From Oscillospiraceae bacterium (GTDB lineage: Bacteria > Bacillota > Clostridia > Oscillospirales > UBA929), in contig WRLU01000001.1 of assembly GCA_009777475.1 (NCBI GenBank), positions 87,608-151,607 on the forward strand: a stretch of 64,000 nt of DNA, written 5' to 3'. The first letter of the stretch is position 1. Every line of letters begins with the position of its first letter. Positions 23,216-46,930 of this stretch are shown piece by piece. The notes beneath the pieces were generated by a model. It ran no database searches and was not told the origin of the DNA. It was given only the letters and a program-made list of their open reading frames with translations. Made by a program: the position numbers and the translations under genes.

Positions 23216-23292
23216 GGCGGCGTAGCTCAGTTGGCTAGAGCATACGGTTCATACCCGTAGTGTCATTGGTTCAATTCCAATCGCCGCTACCA
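23216..23292 (+). tRNA. tRNA-Met (anticodon CAT, elongator-type; lysidine-modified tRNA-Ile2 not excluded)
   Basis: Manual cloverleaf: GGCGGCG acceptor, GCTC/GAGC D stem, TACGG-TTCATAC-CCGTA anticodon arm, ATTGG-TTCAATT-CCAAT T arm, encoded CCA. Confidence 0.9.
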
Positions 23293-36516: not shown

Positions 36517-38610
36517 TTACCGCTTGATTTTCAGACCCTTAGCGGTTGACCACTTGCCAAATACATTCTTCTTCTGAGAGTCTTTCTTGAAGGCTCTTAC
36601 TCTGACCCATACGGTTGTGTTCTTTTTGAGCTTTCTGAAGGTGTACTTGGTTTTCTTTGCGTTGCCAACAGCCTTTGACGCGCCTTTTTTGAAGTTTTTC
36701 GAGGTGGCTCTCTGTACCTGATAGCCTGCCGCGCCCGAAACCTTGCCGTAGCTGAAGGAAAGCTGGCCCTTTTTGCTGTTTTTCAGCTTGGAGGGGGTCT
36801 TGCCCTTGCCTACCTTGACCTTTGTCCACTGAGCGTAGTAGGTCACGGTGGCGGCTGCCTTGGTTGTCGTGCTGATTTTAGTGCCGCCTGATTTTGCGGT
36901 GTACCAGCCCTTTAAGGTGTGGCCCTTGCGGCTGATCTTGGGCAGTGTGCCAACATTAGAGTTGAGCTTAAGTGTTTTCCTGGTAACTGCGTTTTTGTCG
37001 AAGGTACCGCCGTTACGGTCGAAGGTGACGGTAACATCGGGTACCGGACTCGGGGTTATTACCGGCGCGGCATCGGTTTTAATCTGTGTTCCGGCTGAGG
37101 CGTCACCCACATTGTACTTGCCTTCGCCCTGGTCCTTGGCGCGGGCAAAGAAGAAGTAGTTGGTGTTGGCGGTCAGTCCGGTGAAGGCTGTGCTGTCCTG
37201 CCAGCCGGTGTACGGTGCCGCATTAGTTGATGCCCGGGCGTATTCCACAGTCTGGCCGTTTGCCGGAGCGGCAACTGCCGCTAGGGTAATGCTGGTTGCG
37301 GTTCTTGCGGCGGGTGCGGCGGCGGGTGCGGCAACTGCCGCGCCTACATCGTAACGTACCTGCGCGCTGTTAAGAACATAGGTGATGGTGGTAAAAGCAG
37401 GATCATCATCAGGATCATCGGAATCCTCAAAGAATTCAAACGTCACTGTGCCGCCTTTTGATACTAAGAAGGTGAAGTCACTATCGACCGTAAACCCTGT
37501 GTATCCCTTGAGCCTTACATCACCGTCAACGTCCTCGTCAACCGGGCCTAATCCATCGGCAGCGTTGTCGCCGCTATCCCGGTAAATTTCCAGAGCCTTG
37601 TTGGTCTCCTTTATCTGGATGTCAGCCGGGTCGGTACCCAGTATTGCTTCCAGCAGGGATTGGGGAATTGCCGCTACGCTGTAGTCCTTGTCTCCCCACA
37701 GGGCTTTTTTGTCCTTGTCAAACACAGCATCGTCATCCAGGTCCTCCGGCTCCTCAGTCGCTTCTGGAGGAAGGGGAACGCCGAAGTCCACCAGGAACTC
37801 ATCCGGGATTTCCTTCTGATAGGAGGTTCCGCTCAGATAGGCGGTAATCTCCAGTGCGGGGGTGACTTCCGGGTCGGGGTCGGCACTGGGGTAGGCGTTG
37901 GTGTAGGCAAGATTAGCCTCAAGCTGGCTGCCCTCGGCGATGAATTCAAGGCCGCCCTTAACAAAGTCCAGCTGATTGTCGATTTCCACTGTGAGGTATT
38001 TTTCTTTAGTGCTGCTGTCGTCATTAAACATCATTATTACAGCCTCGCTGCCGGGAGCCAGCAGGACGCTTATAAAGTCAGTGGCACCATCGAAGGACGC
38101 GTCTTCTTTTGTAACGCCGTTTGCGGTGTTGGTAGCGTTAAATGTAAGTGTGTCGCTCATCTCGCCTGTCAGTGCCGCGCCGTCAAGGACGGCCAGGGTA
38201 AAGGGCTTGCCGTTCAGGGCAAATGGGTTAGGACAAAAGCTACCGGTTGTTCCATGGTAGGGACTCCCGAGAGGATAATCGCCATCGCCCAAGACGTACT
38301 GGCCCACGTAGCCGGTGCCATCGTCTGTGCGTGTAAGGAAGCCTTCCTCTCCCATTTCAATCTCGCCGGTAAAGGTCAGCTTCACGGTGCTGGTGTCCTC
38401 GTCCCAGTCAACATCGACTTCAACATCGCCAGGAGTACCACCCAGCCAGTTGGTGTTTTCGGTAAGGAAGTCATCGTCCAGCCAGTATTCCGCATCGGCA
38501 GGGCCAGGTTCTTCTGCCAGTACTGTTGCCGGGAGCAGACCAAGCAATAGTGTGGCCGCCAGGAGAATCGCGAAGGAACGCTTGAGGTTGGTTGCCTTTG
38601 AGGTTTTCAT
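36517..38610 (-). CDS. secreted surface protein with Listeria-Bacteroides (Flg_new) repeat and C-terminal Fn3-like domain
   Basis: Signal peptide MKTSKATNLKRSFAILLAATLLLGLLPATVLA from ATG 38610 (AAGGGAGAG SD). Flg_new unit VTFDRNGG...GHTLKGWY...YAQW. Lys-rich Fn3-like end. Confidence 0.8.
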   Translation of the reverse strand: MKTSKATNLKRSFAILLAATLLLGLLPATVLAEEPGPADAEYWLDDDFLTENTNWLGGTPGDVEVDVDWDEDTSTVKLTFTGEIEMGEEGFLTRTDDGTGYVGQYVLGDGDYPLGSPYHGTTGSFCPNPFALNGKPFTLAVLDGAALTGEMSDTLTFNATNTANGVTKEDASFDGATDFISVLLAPGSEAVIMMFNDDSSTKEKYLTVEIDNQLDFVKGGLEFIAEGSQLEANLAYTNAYPSADPDPEVTPALEITAYLSGTSYQKEIPDEFLVDFGVPLPPEATEEPEDLDDDAVFDKDKKALWGDKDYSVAAIPQSLLEAILGTDPADIQIKETNKALEIYRDSGDNAADGLGPVDEDVDGDVRLKGYTGFTVDSDFTFLVSKGGTVTFEFFEDSDDPDDDPAFTTITYVLNSAQVRYDVGAAVAAPAAAPAARTATSITLAAVAAPANGQTVEYARASTNAAPYTGWQDSTAFTGLTANTNYFFFARAKDQGEGKYNVGDASAGTQIKTDAAPVITPSPVPDVTVTFDRNGGTFDKNAVTRKTLKLNSNVGTLPKISRKGHTLKGWYTAKSGGTKISTTTKAAATVTYYAQWTKVKVGKGKTPSKLKNSKKGQLSFSYGKVSGAAGYQVQRATSKNFKKGASKAVGNAKKTKYTFRKLKKNTTVWVRVRAFKKDSQKKNVFGKWSTAKGLKIKR

Positions 38611-38790
38611 AAAAACACTCTCCCTTTCTTTTTTGCCTGTTTTCGTGGGTAAACAGAAAAACCATTCTCTCACCCCCCCCCATGGAAAATTTAGGATGGA
38701 GGGTGCCGCACACTCGAAATAGGTGCATGCCCACTCACAATACTCTTTTTTTGTCAGCATGTCAACCCCCCTGGGGGAGCATTTTGTTGA

Positions 38791-38819
38791 GTTTACACTT
38801 TGTTTACATTTTGTTTACA
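38791..38819. promoter_or_regulatory. three helically phased GTTTACA direct repeats in the divergent intergenic region
   Basis: GTTTACA at 38791, 38802 and 38813, an exact 11-nt period. The array ends 34 nt upstream of the aro -35 box. Confidence 0.4.
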
Positions 38820-38852
38820 ATTGACCGGTATACGGACGCCAAAAAAACAGGG

Positions 38853-38882
38853 TTGACAAGGCCGCCCCCTGTGGTATACAAT
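38853..38882 (+). promoter_or_regulatory. sigma-A type promoter of the aro operon
   Basis: TTGACA (38853-38858), 16-18 nt spacer, TATACA/TACAAT (38875-38882). Confidence 0.55.
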
Positions 38883-38925
38883 GTCCGGGTGAGCATTCAG
38901 CGGAATTTTTTAGGGAGGCAGGGCA

Positions 38926-39039
38926 ATGAGCAGAGGTACTTGTAAAATTGAGCGGAGCAGGAACGCGGCATATTTTGCCTCGGGCTTTGTGCTGTTTTAT
39001 TTTGCCTTTATGCCGGCCCGGAAAAACGCGCCGCGGTAG
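38926..39039 (+). CDS. candidate aro-operon leader peptide (37 aa, 5 Phe + 2 Tyr clustered)
   Basis: AGGGAGG SD 7 nt before the ATG. Peptide MSRGTCKIERSRNAAYFASGFVLFYFAFMPARKNAPR. Followed by a terminator before aroF. Confidence 0.5.
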   Translation: MSRGTCKIERSRNAAYFASGFVLFYFAFMPARKNAPR

Positions 39040-39055
39040 CCGCGGAAGAAAGCGT

Positions 39056-39092
39056 ACCCGGGCAATCGGCAGCGATTGTGCCGGGTGTTTTT
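39056..39092 (+). terminator. intrinsic terminator (attenuator) between leader ORF and aroF
   Basis: ACCCGGGCAATCG-GCAG-CGATTGTGCCGGGT stem of 12-13 bp with one mismatch, followed by GTTTTTATTATTT. Confidence 0.7.
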
Positions 39093-39118
39093 ATTATTTA
39101 AACAGGAGGGAAAATATT

Positions 39119-40123
39119 ATGATAGCAGTGCTTAAGCCAAGCGCGACCGGGGAGCAGATTGAAAATCTTACCGCCTGGCTGGAGGGCAGAGGGCTTGCCG
39201 TGCATCTTTCCAAGGGGGAGTCCTACACCGTGCTGGGGCTGATTGGCGATGTCGCCCGGCTTGATACCGAGCTTTTGGAGGGACTTGACATAGTTGACTC
39301 GGTTAAGCGCATTTCCGACCCATTTAAAAGCGCCAACCGGAAATTCCATCCATCCGACAGCATTATTGAGGTGGGCAATCTGAAAATCGGCGGGCCGCAT
39401 TTTCAGATAATGGCAGGTCCCTGCTCGGTGGAGACCCCGGAGCAGATCAGCCAGATAGCACAGGGCGTCAACGCCTCAGGGGCATCAATACTCAGAGGGG
39501 GGGCATTTAAGCCGCGCACCTCACCGTATGACTTCCAGGGTCTCCGCGCCGATGGGATTGAGCTGCTGCTTGAGGCCAAAAGGCAGACCGGTATGCCTAT
39601 TGTCACCGAAATAATGAACGCCAACCATCTGCCCATGTTTGACGAGGTTGACATTATCCAGGTAGGCGCGCGCAACATGCAGAACTTCGAGCTTCTCAAG
39701 GAGCTGGGGAGCATCCGCAAGCCGGTATTGCTCAAGCGCGGTCTTGCAAGCACGCTCAAGGAGCTGCTTATGAGCGCGGAATACATCATGGCGGGCGGGA
39801 ATCATAATATCATCCTCTGTGAGCGCGGTATCCGCACCTTTGAGACATTTACCCGGAACACTCTTGACATTTCGGCGATACCGGCTCTTAAGGAACTCTC
39901 TCACCTGCCGGTTGTTGTTGATCCCAGCCACGCCTGCGGGATTGCCCGCTTTGTGCTGCCTATGGCAATGGCGGCGGCGGCGGCGGGGGCGCACGGTCTT
40001 ATGATTGAGGTCCACAATGACCCCAAAGCGGCTCTTTGCGATGGGGCGCAGTCGCTCACCCCGGAGCAGTTTGCGCATGTGGCGGAGAATGTGCGCAGGA
40101 TACGCGAGGTGGAGGCACTATGA
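39119..40123 (+). CDS. aroF: 3-deoxy-7-phosphoheptulonate (DAHP) synthase, type I-beta with N-terminal regulatory-like domain
   Basis: GPCSVE, KPRTSPYDFQG and DPSHA motifs. ATG 39119 follows an AGGAGGG SD. The ORF-track extension to 38948 covers the leader. Confidence 0.9.
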   Translation: MIAVLKPSATGEQIENLTAWLEGRGLAVHLSKGESYTVLGLIGDVARLDTELLEGLDIVDSVKRISDPFKSANRKFHPSDSIIEVGNLKIGGPHFQIMAGPCSVETPEQISQIAQGVNASGASILRGGAFKPRTSPYDFQGLRADGIELLLEAKRQTGMPIVTEIMNANHLPMFDEVDIIQVGARNMQNFELLKELGSIRKPVLLKRGLASTLKELLMSAEYIMAGGNHNIILCERGIRTFETFTRNTLDISAIPALKELSHLPVVVDPSHACGIARFVLPMAMAAAAAGAHGLMIEVHNDPKAALCDGAQSLTPEQFAHVAENVRRIREVEAL

Positions 40124-40950
40124 TTGCAGGAGTTGCCGGGCTGGGGCTGATAGGCGGCTCTCTCTCCAAGGCCTACCGGGGCGGCGGGCACTGTGTCTAC
40201 GGCTTTGACGCCGATGAGGAGGTGCTGGGCTTTGCCCTGCTTTCCGGCGCGGCAAGCGGTGTGCTGGACAAAAACACAATCGGGAGGTGCCAGCTGATAT
40301 TTATCGCGCTTAACCCGGCGGACACAGTTGACTATCTGGAAAAAAACGCCCCGTATATTTCAAAGGACGCCATGGTCATTGACTGCTGCGGAGTTAAAAG
40401 GCTTGTCTGCTCAAAATGCTTCCCGATCGCCGAAAAATACGGCTTTGCGTTTGTAGGCGGACACCCTATGGCGGGAAGCCATAAGGGCGGGTTCAAAAAC
40501 AGCCGGGAGAGCCTCTTCCGCGGAGCCTCTATGATTCTTGTCCCTCCTGTATATGACGACCCTGTGTTATTCGGCCGCATGGAGGAGCTGCTGAGGCCTG
40601 CCGGCTTCGGGCGGCTTACTGTCTCCAGTGCCGCCAAGCACGATGAAATGATTGCCTTCAGCTCCCAGATGGCACACGTTGTATCAAACGCCTACGTCAA
40701 AAGCCCCACCGCCCGCGGACATAAAGCTTTCTCCGCCGGGAGCTACAAGGATTTAACGCGGGTTGCAAGGCTTAACCCGGAAATGTGGGCGCAGCTGTGC
40801 ATTGAAAACAGGGATTTCTTAATAAAGGAGCTTGACAGCTTTACAGGGGAGATAGAAAAATACAAGGAATCGCTGGCCAGGGGAGACAAGGACACACTGC
40901 AAGAGCTGCTGGAGGAGGGCAGCAGGCTGAAGGGGGAGCTGGATCCTTGA
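40120..40950 (+). CDS. tyrA: prephenate dehydrogenase
   Basis: GLGLIGGS NAD-binding motif and GGHPMAG. ATGA overlap with aroF. Confidence 0.9.
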   Translation: MIAGVAGLGLIGGSLSKAYRGGGHCVYGFDADEEVLGFALLSGAASGVLDKNTIGRCQLIFIALNPADTVDYLEKNAPYISKDAMVIDCCGVKRLVCSKCFPIAEKYGFAFVGGHPMAGSHKGGFKNSRESLFRGASMILVPPVYDDPVLFGRMEELLRPAGFGRLTVSSAAKHDEMIAFSSQMAHVVSNAYVKSPTARGHKAFSAGSYKDLTRVARLNPEMWAQLCIENRDFLIKELDSFTGEIEKYKESLARGDKDTLQELLEEGSRLKGELDP

Positions 40951-42005
40951 TGAAGACTATAACGGTAAGCGTGTCAAAGACCTATGATATTTTTGTGGGT
41001 TCCGGGCTTCTGGGTAAATCCGGCGGGATTATCAGCCAGGTATGCCCCGGCTTGTCGGCGGCAATTGTTACCGATTCGACCGTGGATTCACTTTACGGCG
41101 GCAGGCTGGCGGATATTCTGGCAAAAAGCGGCCTGAGAGTGTCCAAATATGTTTTCCCTCAGGGCGAGGAGTCTAAGAACCCGGAAATATTTCTAAGCAT
41201 TCTTAATTTTTTGGCACAGGAAAAAATCACCCGCGCAGATGCGGTGGTTGCCCTCGGAGGAGGGGTGGCGGGGGATTTGGCGGGCTTTGCCGCCGCTTCC
41301 TATATGAGAGGGGCCGGGTTTATACAAATCCCGACTACCCTTTTGGCGGCGGTTGATTCCTCGGTTGGCGGAAAAACCGGCATAAATTTGCCGTCAGGGA
41401 AAAACCTGGCCGGGGCATTTTATCAGCCTGATGCCGTGATCTGCGACACCTCGCTACTCTCAACCCTTGATCCTGAGGTCTTCAAGGACGGCTGTGCCGA
41501 GGTTATCAAGTACGGCATGATAGCTGACAGAACGCTGCTGAAGGGCGTTGAAATGCCGGGCAGGGGGAGCTTGGAGGACGTAATTGCCCGGTGTGTTTCA
41601 ATTAAACGCGATATTGTAGCCGGGGACGAGCTTGAGCGGGGAGAGAGAAGGATGCTTAATTTCGGCCATACTGTCGGCCACGCGGTCGAGCTGCTGAGCG
41701 GATACCAAATTTCACACGGCAGGGCGGTTGCCATTGGTATGGCCACCATTACCCGGGCGACCGTTAAAATGGGGCTTTGCCGGAGCGATTGCCTGGATGA
41801 TTTGCTAGAGTCACTCGACAGGCATTCCCTGCCCCAAAGCACAAGCTATAACGCTTGTCAGCTCGCCCGCGCCTGCCTTTCTGATAAAAAGCGCGGCAGG
41901 GACGGCCTTGTGATGGTTTTTCCGGTTGAACCCGGCAAATGTGAACTGAAAAAAATCCCGGTTAGTGACTTGGAGCAAGTAATACGGCTGGGCCTGGAGG
42001 GATAA
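40950..42005 (+). CDS. aroB: 3-dehydroquinate synthase
   Basis: GGGVAGDLAGFAAA and NFGHTVGHA motifs. The start overlaps the tyrA stop. Confidence 0.95.
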   Translation: MKTITVSVSKTYDIFVGSGLLGKSGGIISQVCPGLSAAIVTDSTVDSLYGGRLADILAKSGLRVSKYVFPQGEESKNPEIFLSILNFLAQEKITRADAVVALGGGVAGDLAGFAAASYMRGAGFIQIPTTLLAAVDSSVGGKTGINLPSGKNLAGAFYQPDAVICDTSLLSTLDPEVFKDGCAEVIKYGMIADRTLLKGVEMPGRGSLEDVIARCVSIKRDIVAGDELERGERRMLNFGHTVGHAVELLSGYQISHGRAVAIGMATITRATVKMGLCRSDCLDDLLESLDRHSLPQSTSYNACQLARACLSDKKRGRDGLVMVFPVEPGKCELKKIPVSDLEQVIRLGLEG

Positions 42006-42009
42006 TGCT

Positions 42010-43143
42010 GTGGATATTCGCATAATAAAGCCTTTGCAGGGAAGCGTTCTGCGAGGTCAGGTGACAATGCCGCCCTCCAAGAGCTTATCCCACCGCGCTT
42101 TAATTGCCGCCTTCCTTTCCGGCTGCACGGCTGAAAATCTAGCCGGGAACACCGACATCGCCGCAACGCGAGGCTGCCTTTCCGCGCTTAGGACGGGCGG
42201 GGTTCTTGAATGTGGAGAGTCAGGCTCCACCATGCGGTTCCTCATGCCGCTGTCGCTGGTTTTACGTGAAACGGCGGTATTTACCGGAAGCCCGGGGTTG
42301 CTCAGGCGGCCTATGGAGCCGTATTTTAACTTTTTCGATGCCGAAAGGCTTGATAATGGCTACCGCCTGCGGGGCAAGCTCCAGCCGGGGAGGTATCCTC
42401 TTAAGGGGAATGTCAGCTCTCAGTTTGTCACCGGGCTGATGTTTGCCCTGCCCATGCTGGGCGGCAACAGTGAAATCATCCTCACCTCGCCGCTGGAATC
42501 TAAGCCGTATGCCGATATGACAGTACAGGTGCTGTCAGCATTCGGCATTGACATAAAGGAGGTAAGCGGCGGCTATTTTATCCCCGGCAATCAGAAATAT
42601 CGCCCATGCCACTATACGGTGGAGGGAGACCAGTCGGCGGCGGCGTTTTGGCGGGTTGCCAACGCCCTTGGTGCCGAGATAGACTGTAAAGGCCTAAACC
42701 CCCGCACTGTACAGGGTGATAGCGTTATGGAGAGCATTATCCAAAACCATGAGCGTGTCATTGACGTGCGGGAATGTCCTGACCTTGTGCCCGCCCTTGC
42801 CGTACTCTGTTGCTTTGGTCAAGGGGAAAGCCGCATTGTCAATGCCGGCAGGCTGCGGCTCAAGGAAAGTGACCGCCTTAGCACCATATCGGCGGAGCTG
42901 AACAGGCTGGGTGCGAAAATTGAGGAGCTGCCTGAGAGTCTGATTATACAGGGTGTGGCATCCTTGGCCGGCGGTGATGTTTATGGGCATAACGACCACC
43001 GCATTGCAATGGCTCTTGCCATTGCAGCCATGCGCTGTCGTTCGCCTGTTACAATACACGGGGCTGAATGTACAGAGAAATCCTACCCGCGTTTTTTTGA
43101 AGACTTCAAAAGCTTAGGGGGTTATTATGAACAATTGGGGTGA
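42010..43143 (+). CDS. aroA: 3-phosphoshikimate 1-carboxyvinyltransferase (EPSP synthase), short 377-aa form
   Basis: PPSKSLSHR, LKESDR and DHRIAMA motifs. GTG start 8 nt after GGAGGG. Confidence 0.9.
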   Translation: MDIRIIKPLQGSVLRGQVTMPPSKSLSHRALIAAFLSGCTAENLAGNTDIAATRGCLSALRTGGVLECGESGSTMRFLMPLSLVLRETAVFTGSPGLLRRPMEPYFNFFDAERLDNGYRLRGKLQPGRYPLKGNVSSQFVTGLMFALPMLGGNSEIILTSPLESKPYADMTVQVLSAFGIDIKEVSGGYFIPGNQKYRPCHYTVEGDQSAAAFWRVANALGAEIDCKGLNPRTVQGDSVMESIIQNHERVIDVRECPDLVPALAVLCCFGQGESRIVNAGRLRLKESDRLSTISAELNRLGAKIEELPESLIIQGVASLAGGDVYGHNDHRIAMALAIAAMRCRSPVTIHGAECTEKSYPRFFEDFKSLGGYYEQLG

Positions 43144-44077
43144 AGCATTAAAAATTTCCATTTTCGGTGAGTCTCATGGGAAGGCTGTCGGCATAGTAAT
43201 TGATGGAATAGTACCGGGGTTTGCCCCAGATATGGAGGAGGTTGGCCGGGAGTTAGCGCGGCGCGCTCCGGGGCAATCGGGTTTAACAACCTCCCGCAGG
43301 GAGGATGACACCGTAGAAATAGTCAGCGGCCTGTTTGAGGGGAGAACTACCGGAGCCCCGCTTTGCTGTATGATACGCAACACAAATACCCGATCGAGCG
43401 ATTACCAACGGCACCTGGCACGGCCCGGACACGCAGACTATACGGCGCATATAAAATACAAGGGGTTTTCAGACTATAGGGGCGGCGGGCATTTTTCAGG
43501 GAGATTAACCGCGCCATTGGTTTTTGCTGGTGCATTGGCAAAGCAGCTGCTGCCTGGCGTGAACTTCAAGGCCAAGCCGGAGCTTATAGGAGGGGTAAGC
43601 CCTGACGATGAAACTATATTAAACGCTAAGGCTGAAAATGACAGTGTAGGAGGGATAATATCGTGCGTTATTACCGGGCTTCCCGCAGGGCTTGGCGAAC
43701 CGTTTTTCAGCTCGACTGAAAGCCGGCTGTCGTCTATATTGTTTTCCGTACCCGCCGTTAAGGGCGTGGAGTTTGACAATGGGTTTGCATTAGCGGGAAT
43801 GCGCGGTTCTGAGTCTAACAAAACAAATTTCGGCATTTTAGGCGGTATAACAACCGGAAAGCCTCTTAATTTCCGGGTTGCCGTTAAGCCCACGCCCTCA
43901 ATCGGACAGGAGCAGAATACAATTGAGCTTACAACGGGGGAACCCGCTAAAATCACTATATCGGGCAGGCACGACCCATGTATAGTCCCCCGGGCGGTTC
44001 CTGTTATAGAGGCGGCGGCGGCAATTGGCATTCTTGACCTCTGGATTGCGGGAAAATTCCCATTTATATTTGATTAG
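43127..44077 (+). CDS. aroC: chorismate synthase
   Basis: FGESHG and GRHDPC motifs. Overlaps the aroA end by 17 nt. Confidence 0.9.
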   Translation: MNNWGEALKISIFGESHGKAVGIVIDGIVPGFAPDMEEVGRELARRAPGQSGLTTSRREDDTVEIVSGLFEGRTTGAPLCCMIRNTNTRSSDYQRHLARPGHADYTAHIKYKGFSDYRGGGHFSGRLTAPLVFAGALAKQLLPGVNFKAKPELIGGVSPDDETILNAKAENDSVGGIISCVITGLPAGLGEPFFSSTESRLSSILFSVPAVKGVEFDNGFALAGMRGSESNKTNFGILGGITTGKPLNFRVAVKPTPSIGQEQNTIELTTGEPAKITISGRHDPCIVPRAVPVIEAAAAIGILDLWIAGKFPFIFD

Positions 44078-44085
44078 AGAGGAAA

Positions 44086-45231
44086 ATGATTATGGATTTA
44101 CAAGAGTTACGCAAGCAAATTGACGGAATTGACAACGAGTTGGTTGCCTTGCTTGGACGCCGCATGGATACATCCGCTGAAATCGCCAAGCATAAAAAAG
44201 CCAACGCCCTGCCGGTATATGACCCGGCACGCGAGAGGCAAAAGCTGTATGATTTATCCGGGAAGGCCGGTGAAGGCCGGGGGACATATATTTCCGCGCT
44301 GTATTCCATTTTGTTTGAGCTAAGCAGAGCCGATCAAGAGCAAATAATAAACCCCCATTCACAATTAACCGACAGAATTCAAAATGCCGTGAAGGATACG
44401 GATTGGCTTTTTCCAGAAAGAACAGTAATAGCCTGCCAGGGCATAGAAGGGGCGTATTCCCAGCAGGCGGCGCAAAAGCTGTTTTCAACGCCAAGCATTA
44501 TGTATTTCGGCAACTTTGAAGGGGTCTTTTCGGCAGTTGACAGCGGTATGTGTTCATACGGCATTCTGCCGCTTGAAAATAGTACGGCAGGCTCAATAAA
44601 TCAAGTATATGACCTTATGATGAAATATCCTTTTAGCATAGTAAAAAGCACACGCCTTAAAATTGACCATTGCTTGCTTGCCAAAAAGAAAGTTGAAATT
44701 ACGGATGTAAAAGAGATATTCTCTCACGAACAGGCGATTGCCCAGTCATCGGAGTTTATAAAAAAACTCGGCTGTAAGGTAACCGTATGCCGGAACACTG
44801 CCGAGGCGGCTGAGATTGTCTCTAAATCACCTCGCAATGACATCGCTGCCCTTTCCTCACGTAACTGCTCTCGTCTGTATGAGCTGTGCCGCCTTGCCGA
44901 CTCCGTGCAGGACCAGGGGAATAATTATACCCGCTTTATCTGTGTTTCAAAATCGCTTGCAATCTATCCGGGTGCCGACAAAACAAGCCTTATGCTTACC
45001 GTTCCCCACAAGCCCGGTTCGCTGTATCACGTGCTGTCCCGGCTTTATATCCATGGAATAAATCTTATCAAGCTTGAAAGCCGCCCCATTCCGAACAGGG
45101 ATTTTGAGTTCATGTTCTATTTCGACCTTGAAACACCTGTATATTCACCCTGCCTAATGAGGGCACTGAGAGAGCTTGAAGATTTTTGTGAGGAGTTTTA
45201 TTATCTCGGTAGCTACTCGGAGGTGGTGTGA
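44086..45231 (+). CDS. pheA: bifunctional chorismate mutase / prephenate dehydratase (P-protein)
   Basis: N-terminal CM_2 helix (LRKQIDGIDNELVALLGRR), a PDT domain and an ACT domain (LESRPI). Alternative start at 44092. Confidence 0.9.
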   Translation: MIMDLQELRKQIDGIDNELVALLGRRMDTSAEIAKHKKANALPVYDPARERQKLYDLSGKAGEGRGTYISALYSILFELSRADQEQIINPHSQLTDRIQNAVKDTDWLFPERTVIACQGIEGAYSQQAAQKLFSTPSIMYFGNFEGVFSAVDSGMCSYGILPLENSTAGSINQVYDLMMKYPFSIVKSTRLKIDHCLLAKKKVEITDVKEIFSHEQAIAQSSEFIKKLGCKVTVCRNTAEAAEIVSKSPRNDIAALSSRNCSRLYELCRLADSVQDQGNNYTRFICVSKSLAIYPGADKTSLMLTVPHKPGSLYHVLSRLYIHGINLIKLESRPIPNRDFEFMFYFDLETPVYSPCLMRALRELEDFCEEFYYLGSYSEVV

Positions 45232-46493
45232 TGGCAGCCTGTGAACAACAGGCAACGAGAAGCCCTGGTCGCTTCGGATTGCTCGGAGAGCATCTTTCAC
45301 ACAGTTTTTCGCCTTTAATCCACGCACAACTGGGAAATTACGAATATGTGCTGCATGAAAAAAAACCTTGGGAGTTAGAGGAGTTTCTCCTGCACAGTGA
45401 ATTTGATGGGCTTAATGTTACTATTCCCTACAAAAAAACTGTTGTTCCTTTTTGTGCGGAATTATCTGATTTTGCAAGGAAAACCGGAAGTGTGAATACA
45501 ATTACGCGCTTGCCTGACGGAACTCTTTTTGGAGACAACACAGATGGATACGGCTTTATTTGTTTGCTGAAAAGGGCAGGTGTTGATCCGGGTGAAGGAA
45601 AAACAGTTGTCCTCGGCAGCGGGGGTGCATCACAAGCAGTACAGGAAGTATTGCGGGAGCAAGGCTCAAGGGAGATTGCAGTTGTATCCAGAACCGGAGA
45701 TAATAATTACGAAAATATTAAAAAACATTCCGATGCTGTTCTTATTGTAAACACAACACCTGTGGGAATGTATCCGGGCAATGGGGTTTCGCCGTTGGCT
45801 GATTTAGGGCTGTTTCAAAACTGCAAGGCTGTAATTGACCTTATTTACAATCCATCCCACACTGAATTGCTGTTAATGGCCAGGGAATGCGGTATTCCTG
45901 CTGAGAATGGGCTTGCAATGCTTGTTGGTCAGGCAAAAAAATCAGCAGAAATGTTTATTGGAGAATCTATTGCCGATTCTCTAATAGAAAAAATTATATC
46001 TAAGATTAGCAGAACAACCCGGAACATTGTGCTGATTGGTATGCCGGGTTGCGGAAAGACAAGCATTGGCACAGAGCTGGCAGGAATAATGGACAGGCCT
46101 TTTGCCGACACAGACGAGCAAATCGAAATGGCCGCCGGAAAGACTGTTGCAGCCATATTTTCCGAGGACGGCGAAAACGCATTCAGGGAATTGGAAACCA
46201 AGCTGCTCACAGAGCTTTGTAAGCAAAACGGAGGCATTGTCGCAACAGGCGGCGGCGTGGTAAAACACCCTGTAAATAAGCATATAATGCAGCAAAACGG
46301 CGTTATTGTCTTTTTAGAACGCGATATTTCCAGACTTGAGACATCAGGCAGGCCCCTTTCAGAACAAGCCGGGGTTGACGTGCTGGCAAAAGAGCGTTTG
46401 CCTATTTATAGGCAGTGGTGCGATGTAGCCGTACAAGTAGGCGGCATTAGACAGACGGCTGAAAAAATATATAATATGGTTAGACAGGAGTAA
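45228..46493 (+). CDS. aroE: fused shikimate dehydrogenase / shikimate kinase
   Basis: N-terminal SHSFSP..H and GSGGAS motifs (AroE). The C-terminal part has Walker A GMPGCGKT plus DTD (AroK). Confidence 0.9.
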   Translation: MMAACEQQATRSPGRFGLLGEHLSHSFSPLIHAQLGNYEYVLHEKKPWELEEFLLHSEFDGLNVTIPYKKTVVPFCAELSDFARKTGSVNTITRLPDGTLFGDNTDGYGFICLLKRAGVDPGEGKTVVLGSGGASQAVQEVLREQGSREIAVVSRTGDNNYENIKKHSDAVLIVNTTPVGMYPGNGVSPLADLGLFQNCKAVIDLIYNPSHTELLLMARECGIPAENGLAMLVGQAKKSAEMFIGESIADSLIEKIISKISRTTRNIVLIGMPGCGKTSIGTELAGIMDRPFADTDEQIEMAAGKTVAAIFSEDGENAFRELETKLLTELCKQNGGIVATGGGVVKHPVNKHIMQQNGVIVFLERDISRLETSGRPLSEQAGVDVLAKERLPIYRQWCDVAVQVGGIRQTAEKIYNMVRQE

Positions 46494-46495
46494 GT

Positions 46496-46930
46496 ATGAA
46501 AAGAATTCTAGTAATCAATGGACCTAATATAAATCTGCTGGGCATACGGGAGCCGGAGATTTACGGAAAAGAGAGTTATGCAGATTTGCTTGCTTTTATT
46601 TGCAATTCGGCAAGGTCTGCCGGAGTTGAGGTTAGGTGTTTTCAATCTAATTCCGAGGGTGCCATTGTAGACGAAATTCAAAACGCCATAGGGCAATTTA
46701 ACGGAATTATAATCAATCCCGCCGCATATACCCATACCAGTATTGCCATTCCCGATGCGCTGAAAGCAACCGGAATACCTGCCGTTGAAGTACACCTATC
46801 CGATATTTCAAATCGTGAAGAATACCGGAAAATTTCTTATACCGCCGAGGCCTGCTGTGCTACCATAGCAGGAAAAGGTTTTGAGGGCTACAGCGAGGCA
46901 ATTGAGGTGCTGTCTTCTATATCACACTAA
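46496..46930 (+). CDS. aroQ: type II 3-dehydroquinate dehydratase
   Basis: VINGPNINLLGIREPEIYG signature. 144 aa. Confidence 0.95.
   Translation: MKRILVINGPNINLLGIREPEIYGKESYADLLAFICNSARSAGVEVRCFQSNSEGAIVDEIQNAIGQFNGIIINPAAYTHTSIAIPDALKATGIPAVEVHLSDISNREEYRKISYTAEACCATIAGKGFEGYSEAIEVLSSISH

Follow-up and report, generated by a model that had tools for sequence, protein, structure and literature searches.

In the textbook view, amino acid biosynthetic operons of the Firmicutes are controlled by T-boxes, TRAP or other proteins, and classical leader-peptide attenuation is all but restricted to Proteobacteria and Actinobacteria. The classical attenuators are those of E. coli (pheL-pheA, pheST, trpL and hisL), and only a handful of exceptions have been reported from Firmicutes, namely those of his in Bacilli, of leu in Streptococcus and Lactococcus and of ilv in Listeria.

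Two described systems serve as precedents for the locus considered here. The aroR leader of Corynebacterium glutamicum, which carries the codons Phe-Tyr-Phe, attenuates the aroF operon, and stalling on it raises read-through (Neshat et al. 2014, J Biotechnol 190:55, via PMC11802643); as far as the account in that review goes, the response is to Phe and not to Tyr (PMC11802643). The second is the uORFC-13-1 motif, a predicted upstream ORF (uORF) that precedes aroF in Acholeplasma and in environmental sequences (Breaker laboratory, PMC8632094).

The DNA analysed in this work is a 64-kb stretch from an Oscillospiraceae bacterium, referred to below as the window. Upstream of its aroF gene lies what is very probably a ribosome-mediated leader-peptide attenuator, which would sense charged tRNA-Phe and tRNA-Tyr and thereby control a complete aromatic amino-acid operon.

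Organization of the aroF Leader

The following features, all on the forward (+) strand, make up the locus:

38853-38882 (+), sigma-A-type leader promoter: -35 TTGACA at 38853-38858, 18-nt spacer, -10 TACAAT at 38877-38882
38905-38925 (+), segment 1, putative anti-antiterminator: AUUUUUUAGGGAGGCAGGGCA, which is the leader's ribosome-binding region with its Shine-Dalgarno (SD) sequence AGGGAGG
38926-39039 (+), leader-peptide ORF: 37 codons plus UAG (39037-39039), peptide MSRGTCKIERSRNAAYFASGFVLFYFAFMPARKNAPR
38971-39009 (+), candidate regulatory codon cluster: Y16, F17, F21, F24, Y25, F26 and F28
39010-39022 (+), segment 2, predicted 5' strand of the antiterminator: core UGCCGGCCCGG at 39011-39021, leader codons 29-32
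39026-39054 (+), apical hairpin of the predicted antiterminator structure: core CCGCGG-UAG-CCGCGG at 39031-39045
39056-39099 (+), intrinsic terminator: 13 bp with one bulge, from a terminator scan and folding
39104-39121 (+), aroF ribosome-binding site and start: AGGAGG at 39104-39109, ATG at 39119
39119-46930 (+), predicted regulated operon: aroF, tyrA, aroB, aroA, aroC, pheA, an aroE-aroK fusion and aroQ (NCBIfam scan)

A preliminary description of this DNA had already listed a TTGACA promoter at 38853, a 37-codon ORF with a strong SD sequence, seven Phe or Tyr residues within 13, a GC-rich terminator after the leader stop codon, an 11-bp alternative pairing, a perfect hairpin with UAG in its loop, and an operon holding both pheA and tyrA. 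Each of these was recovered where it had been placed.

The leader promoter matches the consensus at 11 of 12 positions, and the same consensus scan found three promoter-like sites over 1 kb, where 0.8 would be expected. Transcription would start near 38889. Downstream, AroF matches NF006421 with 472.7 bits over residues 1-331, pheA is the chorismate mutase/prephenate dehydratase type (both from the NCBIfam scan), and the genes of the operon are closely spaced or overlap. The source organism is an uncultured MAG.

The leader ORF begins with the ATG at 38926, 7 nt beyond the SD sequence AGGGAGG (38912-38918), and its cluster consists of five TTT and two TAT codons within 13 codons. At the operon's combined Phe and Tyr frequency of 6.5%, such a cluster has P = 6e-6. 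The window as a whole holds eight stop-free 13-codon stretches with at least seven Phe or Tyr in its six frames, a count from which about 0.01 would be expected in a leader of equal size. Those eight stretches, together with the frequency of alternative pairings in GC-rich leaders, are what could be said for a chance ORF followed by a constitutive, leaky terminator of no regulatory meaning. In fact, the enrichment taken alone is only moderately improbable, and it is the comparative data that make it convincing: the full arrangement is kept in homologous loci even though their leader DNA has a mean column identity of only 63% despite AroF identities of 84-85%, and the same logic is found in more than 100 other loci. 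With the low expectation for a leader-sized region added to this, a chance origin is barely credible. Codon bias is uninformative here, as all seven Phe/Tyr codons end in U, yet P = 0.057 given the operon's usage. The leader peptide is hydrophobic.

Alternative Structures in the Leader RNA

The terminator hairpin spans 39056-39086, folds at -19.7 kcal/mol and is followed by the tail GUUUUUAUUAUUU at 39087-39099. Its 5' arm lies at 39056-39068, its loop GCAG at 39069-39072 and its 3' arm, which is segment 4, at 39073-39086; segment 3 comprises 39058-39071.

The alternative partner of this 5' arm is segment 2. The core at 39011-39021 can pair with 39058-39063 and 39067-39071 to give a duplex of 11 bp and -21.4 kcal/mol, which was equalled by 8 of 300 shuffles. 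When leaders or terminators from 104 loci were substituted for the window's own, none gave a pairing as good. The window's antiterminator contains an AAU bulge, which goes back to a 3-nt deletion in segment 2. Between segments 2 and 3 an apical hairpin (-12.1 kcal/mol; 8 of 500 shuffles as good) carries the leader stop codon, 39037-39039, in its loop.

A further pairing would involve the region where the ribosome itself loads. Segment 1 can pair with 39004-39027, segment 2 included, and in ribosome-free minimum free energy (MFE) folds segment 2 is paired with nucleotides -6 to -16 relative to the leader ATG. The window's 1:2 duplex reaches -20.3 kcal/mol and was equalled by 12 and 25 shuffles in sets of 500. 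All four homologous leaders (the window's and the three introduced below) are predicted to pair segment 2 with the initiation region in the same way, at -18 to -26 kcal/mol and with shuffle frequencies of 0.02-0.12, these being long-range MFE predictions. A role for segment 1 as an anti-antiterminator has moderate support and is advanced here as a suggestion.

Proposed Mechanism and Ribosome Geometry

A scheme of the classical kind can be put forward from these parts, in which the coupling of ribosome to polymerase and the response to Phe and Tyr are presumed. Transcription would begin at about 38889, and a ribosome would load at AGGGAGG/AUG and translate the 37 codons behind RNA polymerase. 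With Phe and Tyr plentiful, the ribosome would pass segment 2 and reach the UAG between segments 2 and 3, where its presence would prevent 2:3 pairing; the terminator at 39056-39086 and its U-tract would then form, and transcription would end about 25 nt upstream of aroF. When Phe-tRNA or Tyr-tRNA is scarce, the ribosome would stall on one of six Phe/Tyr codons at 38971-39003, leaving segment 2 free to capture the 5' arm of the terminator as soon as it is made, so that the terminator is unable to form and polymerase continues into aroF. Were no ribosome engaged, segment 1 would capture segment 2, and termination would be the default. If the leader's ribosome-binding site does act as the anti-antiterminator, about one round of leader translation would be licensed per transcript.

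The geometry was explored with a footprint model in which the ribosome masks -15 to +12 from the A-site, figures that are textbook limits rather than measurements. When the A-site holds a Phe/Tyr codon, the 5' arm of 13-15 nt has 8-14 nt paired to upstream sequence by the time segment 4 is made; for a ribosome placed at the stop codon this number drops to 0-5 nt, and the terminator forms. Six of the window's seven Phe/Tyr codons allow the antiterminator under this masking, and F28 and the stop codon allow the terminator only. Segment 2 begins only some 3 nt past the last Phe codon, and a ribosome stalled at F28 is predicted to cover it, so that only the six codons before F28 would be productive. 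At equilibrium, the full-length RNA favours the terminator in every modelled state, and antitermination must therefore be kinetic.

Homologous Leaders in Termite-Gut Oscillospiraceae

Three homologous leaders, here called L164, L165 and L167, were found upstream of aroF-tyrA on contigs of termite-gut Oscillospiraceae with AroF 84-85% identical to that of the window. They were reached only through a protein search and contig look-ups. The closest AroF relatives in two collection scans (76-83% identity) have T-boxes or no leader. A profile search of the protein database with the leader peptide returned two proteins only: the leader peptide of L167 itself and a protein that differs from the L165 peptide at one residue. 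Such leader ORFs are rarely called as genes.

The three leaders keep the SD sequence and ATG, with ORFs of 48 aa (L164), 44 aa (L165) and 39 aa (L167). Their N-terminal residues diverge, and the Phe/Tyr run persists at 10 of 14, 8 of 12 and 5 of 8 residues, respectively, the runs being YALFFGLFFYYYFF, ALFFGLFFYYFY and SYFGLYYY. The window's run of 7 in 13, broken by ASG, VL and A, is the weakest seen. Segment 2, which reads CGAUUGUCCG, CGGUUGUCCG or CGGUUGUCUG, forms 10 bp with the 5' arm of the terminator in each homologue. The terminators, CCCGGGCAATCG...CGATTGCCCGGG, are otherwise alike and differ at one pair by a compensatory G-C/A-U/G-U change; covariation within this sub-family is thin, there being three true homologues only. 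Column-by-column pair counts were set aside for the four-sequence alignment, in which the 3' arm is thrown out of register by a bulged G. Across the four leaders, terminators fold at -19.7 to -29.1 kcal/mol and antiterminator duplexes at -19.1 to -21.4 kcal/mol, each equalled by 1-8 of 300 shuffles. In all four, 7-19 nt separate segment 2 from the stop codon, and a further 15-21 nt separate the stop codon from the terminator. L164, L165 and L167 also have a hairpin of unrelated sequence at the place of the window's apical hairpin, with the stop codon in or beside its loop.

These homologues also bear on the idea that control is mainly translational, with a leader UAUUUUGCCU repeat (38971 and 38998) masking the SD region of aroF (39106-39117) unless a ribosome is stalled on the codons of the repeat. 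The window does show a 12-nt complementarity with 11 matches, and the duplex of -14.7 kcal/mol was matched by only 9 of 500 shuffles. The best duplexes between leader and aroF ribosome-binding site in L164, L165 and L167, however, were equalled by 149, 390 and 489 of 500 shuffles, and such masking would act only on transcripts already beyond the terminator. The pairing is found in the window only, without counterpart in the homologues, and is probably due to chance; as the main mode of control it is most improbable.

A Large Family of Clostridial Phe/Tyr Leaders

Beyond the close homologues, 114 of 162 related Clostridia aroF loci carry an SD sequence and ATG-initiated ORF with at least six Phe or Tyr in 10 codons and, downstream of it, a strong terminator. 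Examples occur in Sporobacter termitidis, Flintibacter, Lawsonibacter and Angelakisella. Rfam 15 scans of these loci gave noise only. The leaders, which are more AT-rich than that of the window, were aligned with MAFFT (alignment A1), and a covariance model (R1) was built from 98 of them. In the terminator of the family, pairing reaches 88%, and each of the 12 pairs shows compensatory changes. Fixed-column covariation in A1 is weak, with 68.5% of the antiterminator paired against 65.1% after shuffling and 68.7% against 63.0% for the 1:2 pairing. Because the register differs between sub-families, per-locus duplexes and a comparison of native with foreign partners were used, in which native segment 2 and terminator pair at -14.4 kcal/mol and foreign combinations at -11.2 kcal/mol.

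Depending on the locus, the segment-2 motif of the large family is conserved inside the ORF or beyond its stop codon; because it is kept in either place, it must be conserved as RNA and not as peptide. This weighs against the proposal that the ORF is there to make a hydrophobic micro-protein with a function of its own, such as a membrane peptide, in which case the hairpin would be a plain terminator or insulator and the alternative pairing fortuitous. The window's peptide is indeed hydrophobic, the L165 ORF is annotated as a gene by its source, whose pipeline called it as such, and trans-acting leader peptides are known, peTrpL being one. What is conserved, however, is Phe/Tyr content and the pairing nucleotide motifs only; length, N-terminus and C-terminus all vary. 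The ORF is always upstream of aroF, and a terminator placed directly between the promoter and aroF, the gene that opens an essential biosynthetic operon, is sensible only if it is conditional. A micro-protein is thus a very unlikely explanation.

Membership of the window in this family by sequence was considered and rejected, since R1 scored at most 1.1 bits on the window leader, even with filters off. The model gave 48.7 bits for L163, a clear family member with 85% AroF identity to the window, 17.5 for L041, 12.9 for L165 and 9.9 for L164; the L165 and L164 matches are weak but full-length and at the right place. By sequence inspection, a TTGACA-N17-TAnnnT promoter occurs at comparable distance in L163, L164 and L167. 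Judging from these scores, the window leader may be a diverged branch of the large family, or its homology may lie past detection. As R1 misses the window leader, the statistics of the large family apply to it by analogy only.

The large family and the window share the same position, parts and logic. They differ in the sequences of segment 2 and terminator, which are GC-rich in the window (CCGGCCCGG and CCCGGGCAATCG) as opposed to UUUGUGCUGCA and CGCAGUGAAA in the large family, and in segment 1, for which the window has the initiation region and the large family a UUUGCAGC (Phe-Ala-Ala) motif.

The preliminary description had called a pheL-like attenuator unusual in a Firmicute. This holds for the literature, where such leaders are rare; it does not hold for Clostridia genomes, in which the Phe/Tyr leader is a common solution. 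There is also something to be gained for annotation, as Phe/Tyr aroF leaders are missing from Rfam and almost never called as genes, and it is for these reasons that the leaders and their premature 3' ends have been left unexplained. A case of unexplained premature termination has been reported at aroF of C. difficile (PMC8237595).

T-Boxes and the Origin of the Signal

No Rfam 15 family, T-box, Phe_leader and leu/phe leader included, matched 38700-39200 even at E<=10, and at the Rfam gathering score the whole window yielded two tRNAs only. A reading of the leader as a T-box or other riboswitch was rejected on this basis; the leader contains neither a T-box sequence nor a Stem I. Of the other checks that the preliminary description had proposed, the comparison with relatives showed that the small ORF, its Phe/Tyr run, the terminator and the antiterminator all recur in L164, L165 and L167, and folding under footprint masking gave the antiterminator on stalling and the terminator at the stop codon.

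It might still be argued that the switch is real but responds to a small ligand, to uncharged tRNA or to a protein that binds the RNA, the Phe/Tyr ORF being incidental. T-boxes, TRAP or protein-mediated antitermination are usual in Firmicutes, T-boxes are used by close AroF relatives, and alternative RNA structures alone are silent on what sets them. Against this stand not only the Rfam result but also the retention of an SD-ATG ORF with a Phe/Tyr run both in the homologues and in over 100 other loci while other residues vary, and the positions of run, segment 2 and stop codon, which suit a ribosome footprint; nor is there a conserved unpaired motif that would point to a ligand or protein site. 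A switch of this kind is accordingly judged unlikely, and ribosome-mediated attenuation remains the preferred reading.

The T-boxes of the relatives are nevertheless instructive. Close relatives with AroF 79-84% identical carry aroF T-boxes (RF00230) with Tyr (UAC) or Phe (UUC) specifiers. These resemble the window leader in the gene controlled, in their use of tRNA-Tyr or tRNA-Phe and in the choice between terminator and antiterminator, whereas a T-box reads uncharged tRNA through RNA-RNA contacts with no need for translation and the window leader is of the leader-peptide type. The occurrence of a T-box at the same place in close relatives offers a natural experiment in the turnover between two readouts of tRNA charging.

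Taken further, it is conceivable, though the proposal is tentative and may well not hold, that Phe/Tyr leader attenuators form a widespread, uncatalogued class in Clostridia (more than 100 species-level aroF loci, absent from Rfam 15) that has repeatedly been swapped with Tyr/Phe T-boxes, or has disappeared, in lineages still sharing 79-85% AroF identity. Within this class, the branch of the window would be marked by an anti-antiterminator formed from the leader's own ribosome-binding site and by a stop codon in the apical hairpin of the antiterminator.

Comparison with Known Systems

The mechanism is a classical one, with precedents in aroR-aroF of C. glutamicum and uORFC-13-1 of Acholeplasma, and is rarely described in Clostridia. 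What has to be corrected is the textbook view, since the whole aromatic pathway of this gut Oscillospiraceae bacterium is most likely under a dual Phe/Tyr leader peptide.

Like the window's leader, aroR places Phe and Tyr codons before an operon headed by the DAHP synthase gene aroF, a likeness that is a functional analogy drawn by description rather than sequence. The actinobacterial leader has a single short F-Y-F, in contrast to seven Phe/Tyr over 13 codons in the clostridial one, and the content of the operons differs. The uORFC-13-1 motif, compared by description only, likewise has a uORF with Phe codons directly before an intrinsic terminator and aroF in a Firmicutes-related lineage; its description is limited to Acholeplasma and speaks of "at least one" Phe codon derived from a U-run.

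With the E. coli pheL-pheA type, the window shares the logic, in which a short ORF with its run of regulatory codons is combined with segments 1-4 and an intrinsic terminator, while showing no sequence similarity and no covariance-model similarity to Phe_leader (no Rfam match at E<=10). Unlike pheL-pheA, the window leader would sense two amino acids and would control the common pathway together with both the Phe and Tyr branches. Moreover, segment 1 is apparently the leader's ribosome-binding site in the window and the region of the regulatory codons in the classical E. coli attenuators, and the window's stop codon, unlike theirs, lies in the apical hairpin that separates segment 2 from segment 3.

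The leader and its operon

The aromatic amino acid operon of the window is preceded by a leader that can be predicted, with good confidence, to act as a ribosome-mediated Phe/Tyr (F/Y) attenuator. This was the interpretation offered in the preliminary description, whose promoter, leader ORF, F/Y cluster and terminator were all read in the sequence as claimed, and it is supported by homologous leaders, by footprint-masked folding, and by the lack of any Rfam match. Confidence is held at this level because the evidence comes from sequence throughout, true homologues are few, and the F/Y run in the window's own leader is interrupted. The features are as follows.

23216-23289, (+): tRNA gene, 66.1 bits
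23337-23408, (+): tRNA gene, 62.6 bits
36517-38760, (-): divergent upstream gene, 747 aa in the ORF list, Flg_new / Listeria-Bacteroides repeat protein
38853-38882: strong sigma-A-type promoter (TTGACA, 18 nt, TACAAT; 11/12 consensus matches)
38912-38918: leader Shine-Dalgarno (SD) sequence AGGGAGG, 7 nt before the ATG
38926-39039: leader ORF of 37 codons (ATG 38926, UAG 39037-39039)
38971-39009: Phe/Tyr cluster, codons 16-28 (5 TTT and 2 TAT)
39056-39086: terminator, a 13-bp GC-rich hairpin with one bulge (-19.7 kcal/mol), then GUUUUUAUUAUUU
39119-46930: operon of aroF, tyrA, aroB, aroA, aroC, pheA (chorismate mutase/prephenate dehydratase), an aroE-aroK fusion and aroQ

The terminator ends 20 nt before the aroF ATG (39119). 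When 38700-39200 was searched with Rfam 15, neither a T-box nor any other riboswitch or family was matched, even at E<=10, and at the gathering score the whole window yielded the two tRNAs and nothing else. Stop-free stretches of 13 codons with at least seven F/Y occur eight times in the window's six frames, with about 0.01 expected in this leader; taken alone, the rarity of the cluster is suggestive and not decisive. AroF itself (39119-40123) has an FXD (ferredoxin-like) domain, PF18152, N-terminal to the DAHP synthase barrel, so allosteric feedback control probably acts on the enzyme as well.

Conservation among close relatives

A protein search with AroF recovered relatives at 82-85% identity, whose contigs were inspected upstream of aroF. 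Three kinds of upstream region were found among them, namely window-type leaders, a member of a large Clostridia family, and T-boxes, while others had neither leader nor T-box; the nearest relatives by AroF from the two collection scans (76-83% identity) were without such a leader. Three loci carry homologues of the window's leader.

L164: MDTGNRITNVINNTHSLVNEAVYALFFGLFFYYYFFMHPVVRNSAPIF
L165: MDNGNFMINGSNINVFMSEAIGALFFGLFFYYFYMRPIVRRVVM
L167: MNDRSRKLNSLFTNEAILTSYFGLYYYTRPVVCRSTLRL

All four leaders keep the F/Y run, and the N-terminus varies. The terminator CCCGGGCAAUCG...CGAUUGCCCGGG is also kept (-19.7 to -29.1 kcal/mol), with one pair being G-C in L165 and L167, A-U in L164, and G-U in the window. 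Segment 2 of the homologues (CGAUUGUCCG, CGGUUGUCCG or CGGUUGUCUG; 39011-39021 in the window) forms 10 bp with CGG(G/A)CAAUCG of the terminator's 5' arm (segment 3), which corresponds to the antiterminator first proposed for the window with a split left arm. That pairing was confirmed, and its 3-nt AAU bulge was traced to segment 2 being one codon shorter in the window (MP-AR versus MRPIVR), a loss made up for by extra G-C pairs. Across the four leaders, antiterminator duplexes reach -19.1 to -21.4 kcal/mol, values equalled or bettered by 1-8 of 300 shuffles.

The stop codon lies 7-19 nt past segment 2 and 15-21 nt ahead of the terminator. The UAG described in the loop of a CCGCGG hairpin was found, and in all four leaders a small hairpin lies between segments 2 and 3 with the stop codon in or beside its loop, although the sequences forming it are unrelated (CCGCGG/CCGCGG, GAUAUU/AAUAUC, GGGUUGUAAU/GUUGCAACCC and UUGUAA/UUACAA). 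Against shuffles, the hairpin is significantly stable in the window (8/500) and L165 (0/500) and weak in the two AU-rich cases.

A large family of F/Y leaders in Clostridia

Scanning species-representative genomes with AroF gave 80 Clostridia loci (64-79% identity), and 65 of the 75 usable ones have a short ORF with SD and ATG, 70-230 nt upstream of aroF, with at least 6 F/Y per 10 codons. Once a metagenome scan was added, an F/Y ORF with a strong terminator was present at 114/162 Clostridia loci. Peptides such as MKSTLFAAAYFFYFFFYFICGKVKVISAAKNAIVA and MRNVLFTASYYFYFYFYWDEVRAIDAAKSAI (the latter from Sporobacter termitidis) illustrate the family, whose named hosts include Sporobacter, Flintibacter, Lawsonibacter, Pseudoflavonifractor, Angelakisella, Emergencia, Faecalibacterium and Ruminococcus. 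The family (L001-L162, alignment A1) is AT-rich, no Rfam family matched its loci, and 98 aligned leaders give the consensus UUUGCAGCnGnAUAUUnUUACUUUUACUUU ... AGUAAGAGUGAUUUnUGCUGCAAA ... GCCnCGCAGUnAAnnCnCUGnGGGGCnUUUUUUU. Pairing in its terminator reaches 88%, compensatory changes are seen at 12/12 pairs, and the covariation score is 0.69 versus 0.24 in shuffles.

Segment 2 of the family is a GAUUUnUGCUGCA motif complementary to the terminator loop and the top of the 5' arm. Some loci keep it within the ORF and others downstream of the stop codon, so what is conserved is the RNA and not the peptide. It binds the native terminator at -14.4 kcal/mol versus -11.2 for foreign ones (23% of loci in the best 5%), and fixed-column counts for this pairing and for segments 1 and 2 (UUUGCAGC with GCUGCAAA) are only modestly above controls.

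One locus, L163 (AroF 85% identical to the window's), is a clear member, scoring 48.7 bits with R1, the covariance model built from A1. Its leader (positions 522-665; MIVNNSLYSYNYCISVYCKNAVLRCAE) contains four Tyr codons and zero Phe codons, the run being Tyr-only (SLYSYNYCISVYC), and may be a Tyr-specific variant. R1 does not recognise the window's leader (at most 1 bit even with filters off). Weak full-length matches lie exactly over the leaders of L165 (12.9 bits) and L164 (9.9 bits), and because of these the window's branch probably split from the large family as a GC-enriched offshoot whose most diverged member is the window.

Exchange with T-boxes

T-boxes of 93-109 bits lie upstream of aroF at seven loci with AroF 79-84% identical (L084, L086, L087, L088, L090, L169 and L170); five come from the collection scans (100-109 bits), and L169 and L170 score 93 bits. 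Specifiers are UAC (Tyr) in L086 and UUC (Phe) in L088, which agrees with dual Phe/Tyr sensing at the aromatic operon. Neither leader peptide nor T-box was found at L085, L089, L091, L168, L171, L172 and L001. Judging from these upstream regions, aroF regulation has turned over rapidly in this clade.

Proposed mechanism

A ribosome footprint covering 15 nt on the 5' side of the A-site and 12 nt on its 3' side was masked, and the remaining free RNA was folded. With the A-site at Y16, F17, F21, F24, Y25 or F26, the antiterminator forms in RNA made before segment 4, the terminator's 3' arm (-27 to -36 kcal/mol when all of the free RNA is counted, including the nested hairpin). With the A-site at F28, a later codon or the stop, only the terminator forms, since segment 2 is then covered or the ribosome lies between segments 2 and 3. 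The outcome is the same for L164, L165 and L167. At equilibrium, the full-length RNA prefers the terminator, and read-through would therefore have to be kinetic, as in the classical model.

In ribosome-free folds of all four leaders, the partner of segment 2 is the initiation region of the same leader (38905-38925 in the window, SD included), at -18 to -26 kcal/mol and shuffle frequencies of 0.02-0.12 each. Such pairing would act as an anti-antiterminator, making termination the default, and would shut the leader's ribosome-binding site once segment 2 is made.

Neighbouring features

Three GTTTACA repeats at 11-nt spacing (38791-38821; GTTTACACT, GTTTACATT, GTTTACAAT) overlap TTTACA-18-TACAAT, a further promoter-like site that precedes the leader promoter by about 60 nt; the region could be a second promoter or a transcription-factor binding site. 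The divergent gene has a good SD and an ATG at 38610 (minus strand), followed by a signal-peptide-like MKTSKATNLKRSF. This is probably its true start, and the intergenic region would then measure about 310 nt. Nine consecutive C (G when read on the minus strand) at 38673-38681 lie in the intergenic region, between this surface-protein gene and its promoter-like site (38765-38737), and could be a slipped-strand, phase-variable tract.

Within the leader, UAUUUUGCCU (Tyr-Phe-Ala codons) is repeated at 38970-38981 and 38998-39007 and is 11/12 complementary to the aroF SD region (39106-39117); this pairing is absent from the three homologous leaders and is thus probably due to chance.

Comparison with known systems

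The mechanism is classical; what is worth recording is how prevalent it is in Clostridia, that Rfam lacks it, and that close relatives have exchanged it with T-boxes. No description of the Clostridia F/Y leaders was found in the literature collection searched, a negative that is only an absence of evidence. Other leader peptides have been reported in Firmicutes for his in Bacilli (PMC2965389) and leu in Streptococcus (PMC5314783). Possibly related is the premature termination event reported at C. difficile aroF, for which no riboregulator is known (PMC8237595). The closest prediction in a Firmicute-related lineage is the uORFC-13-1 motif upstream of aroF in Acholeplasma (PMC8632094). The window's leader follows the same logic as trpL, pheL and hisL, and its closest functional precedent is the aroR leader (Phe-Tyr-Phe) of C. 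glutamicum, upstream of the aroF operon and reported as experimentally shown (Neshat 2014, as summarised in PMC11802643).
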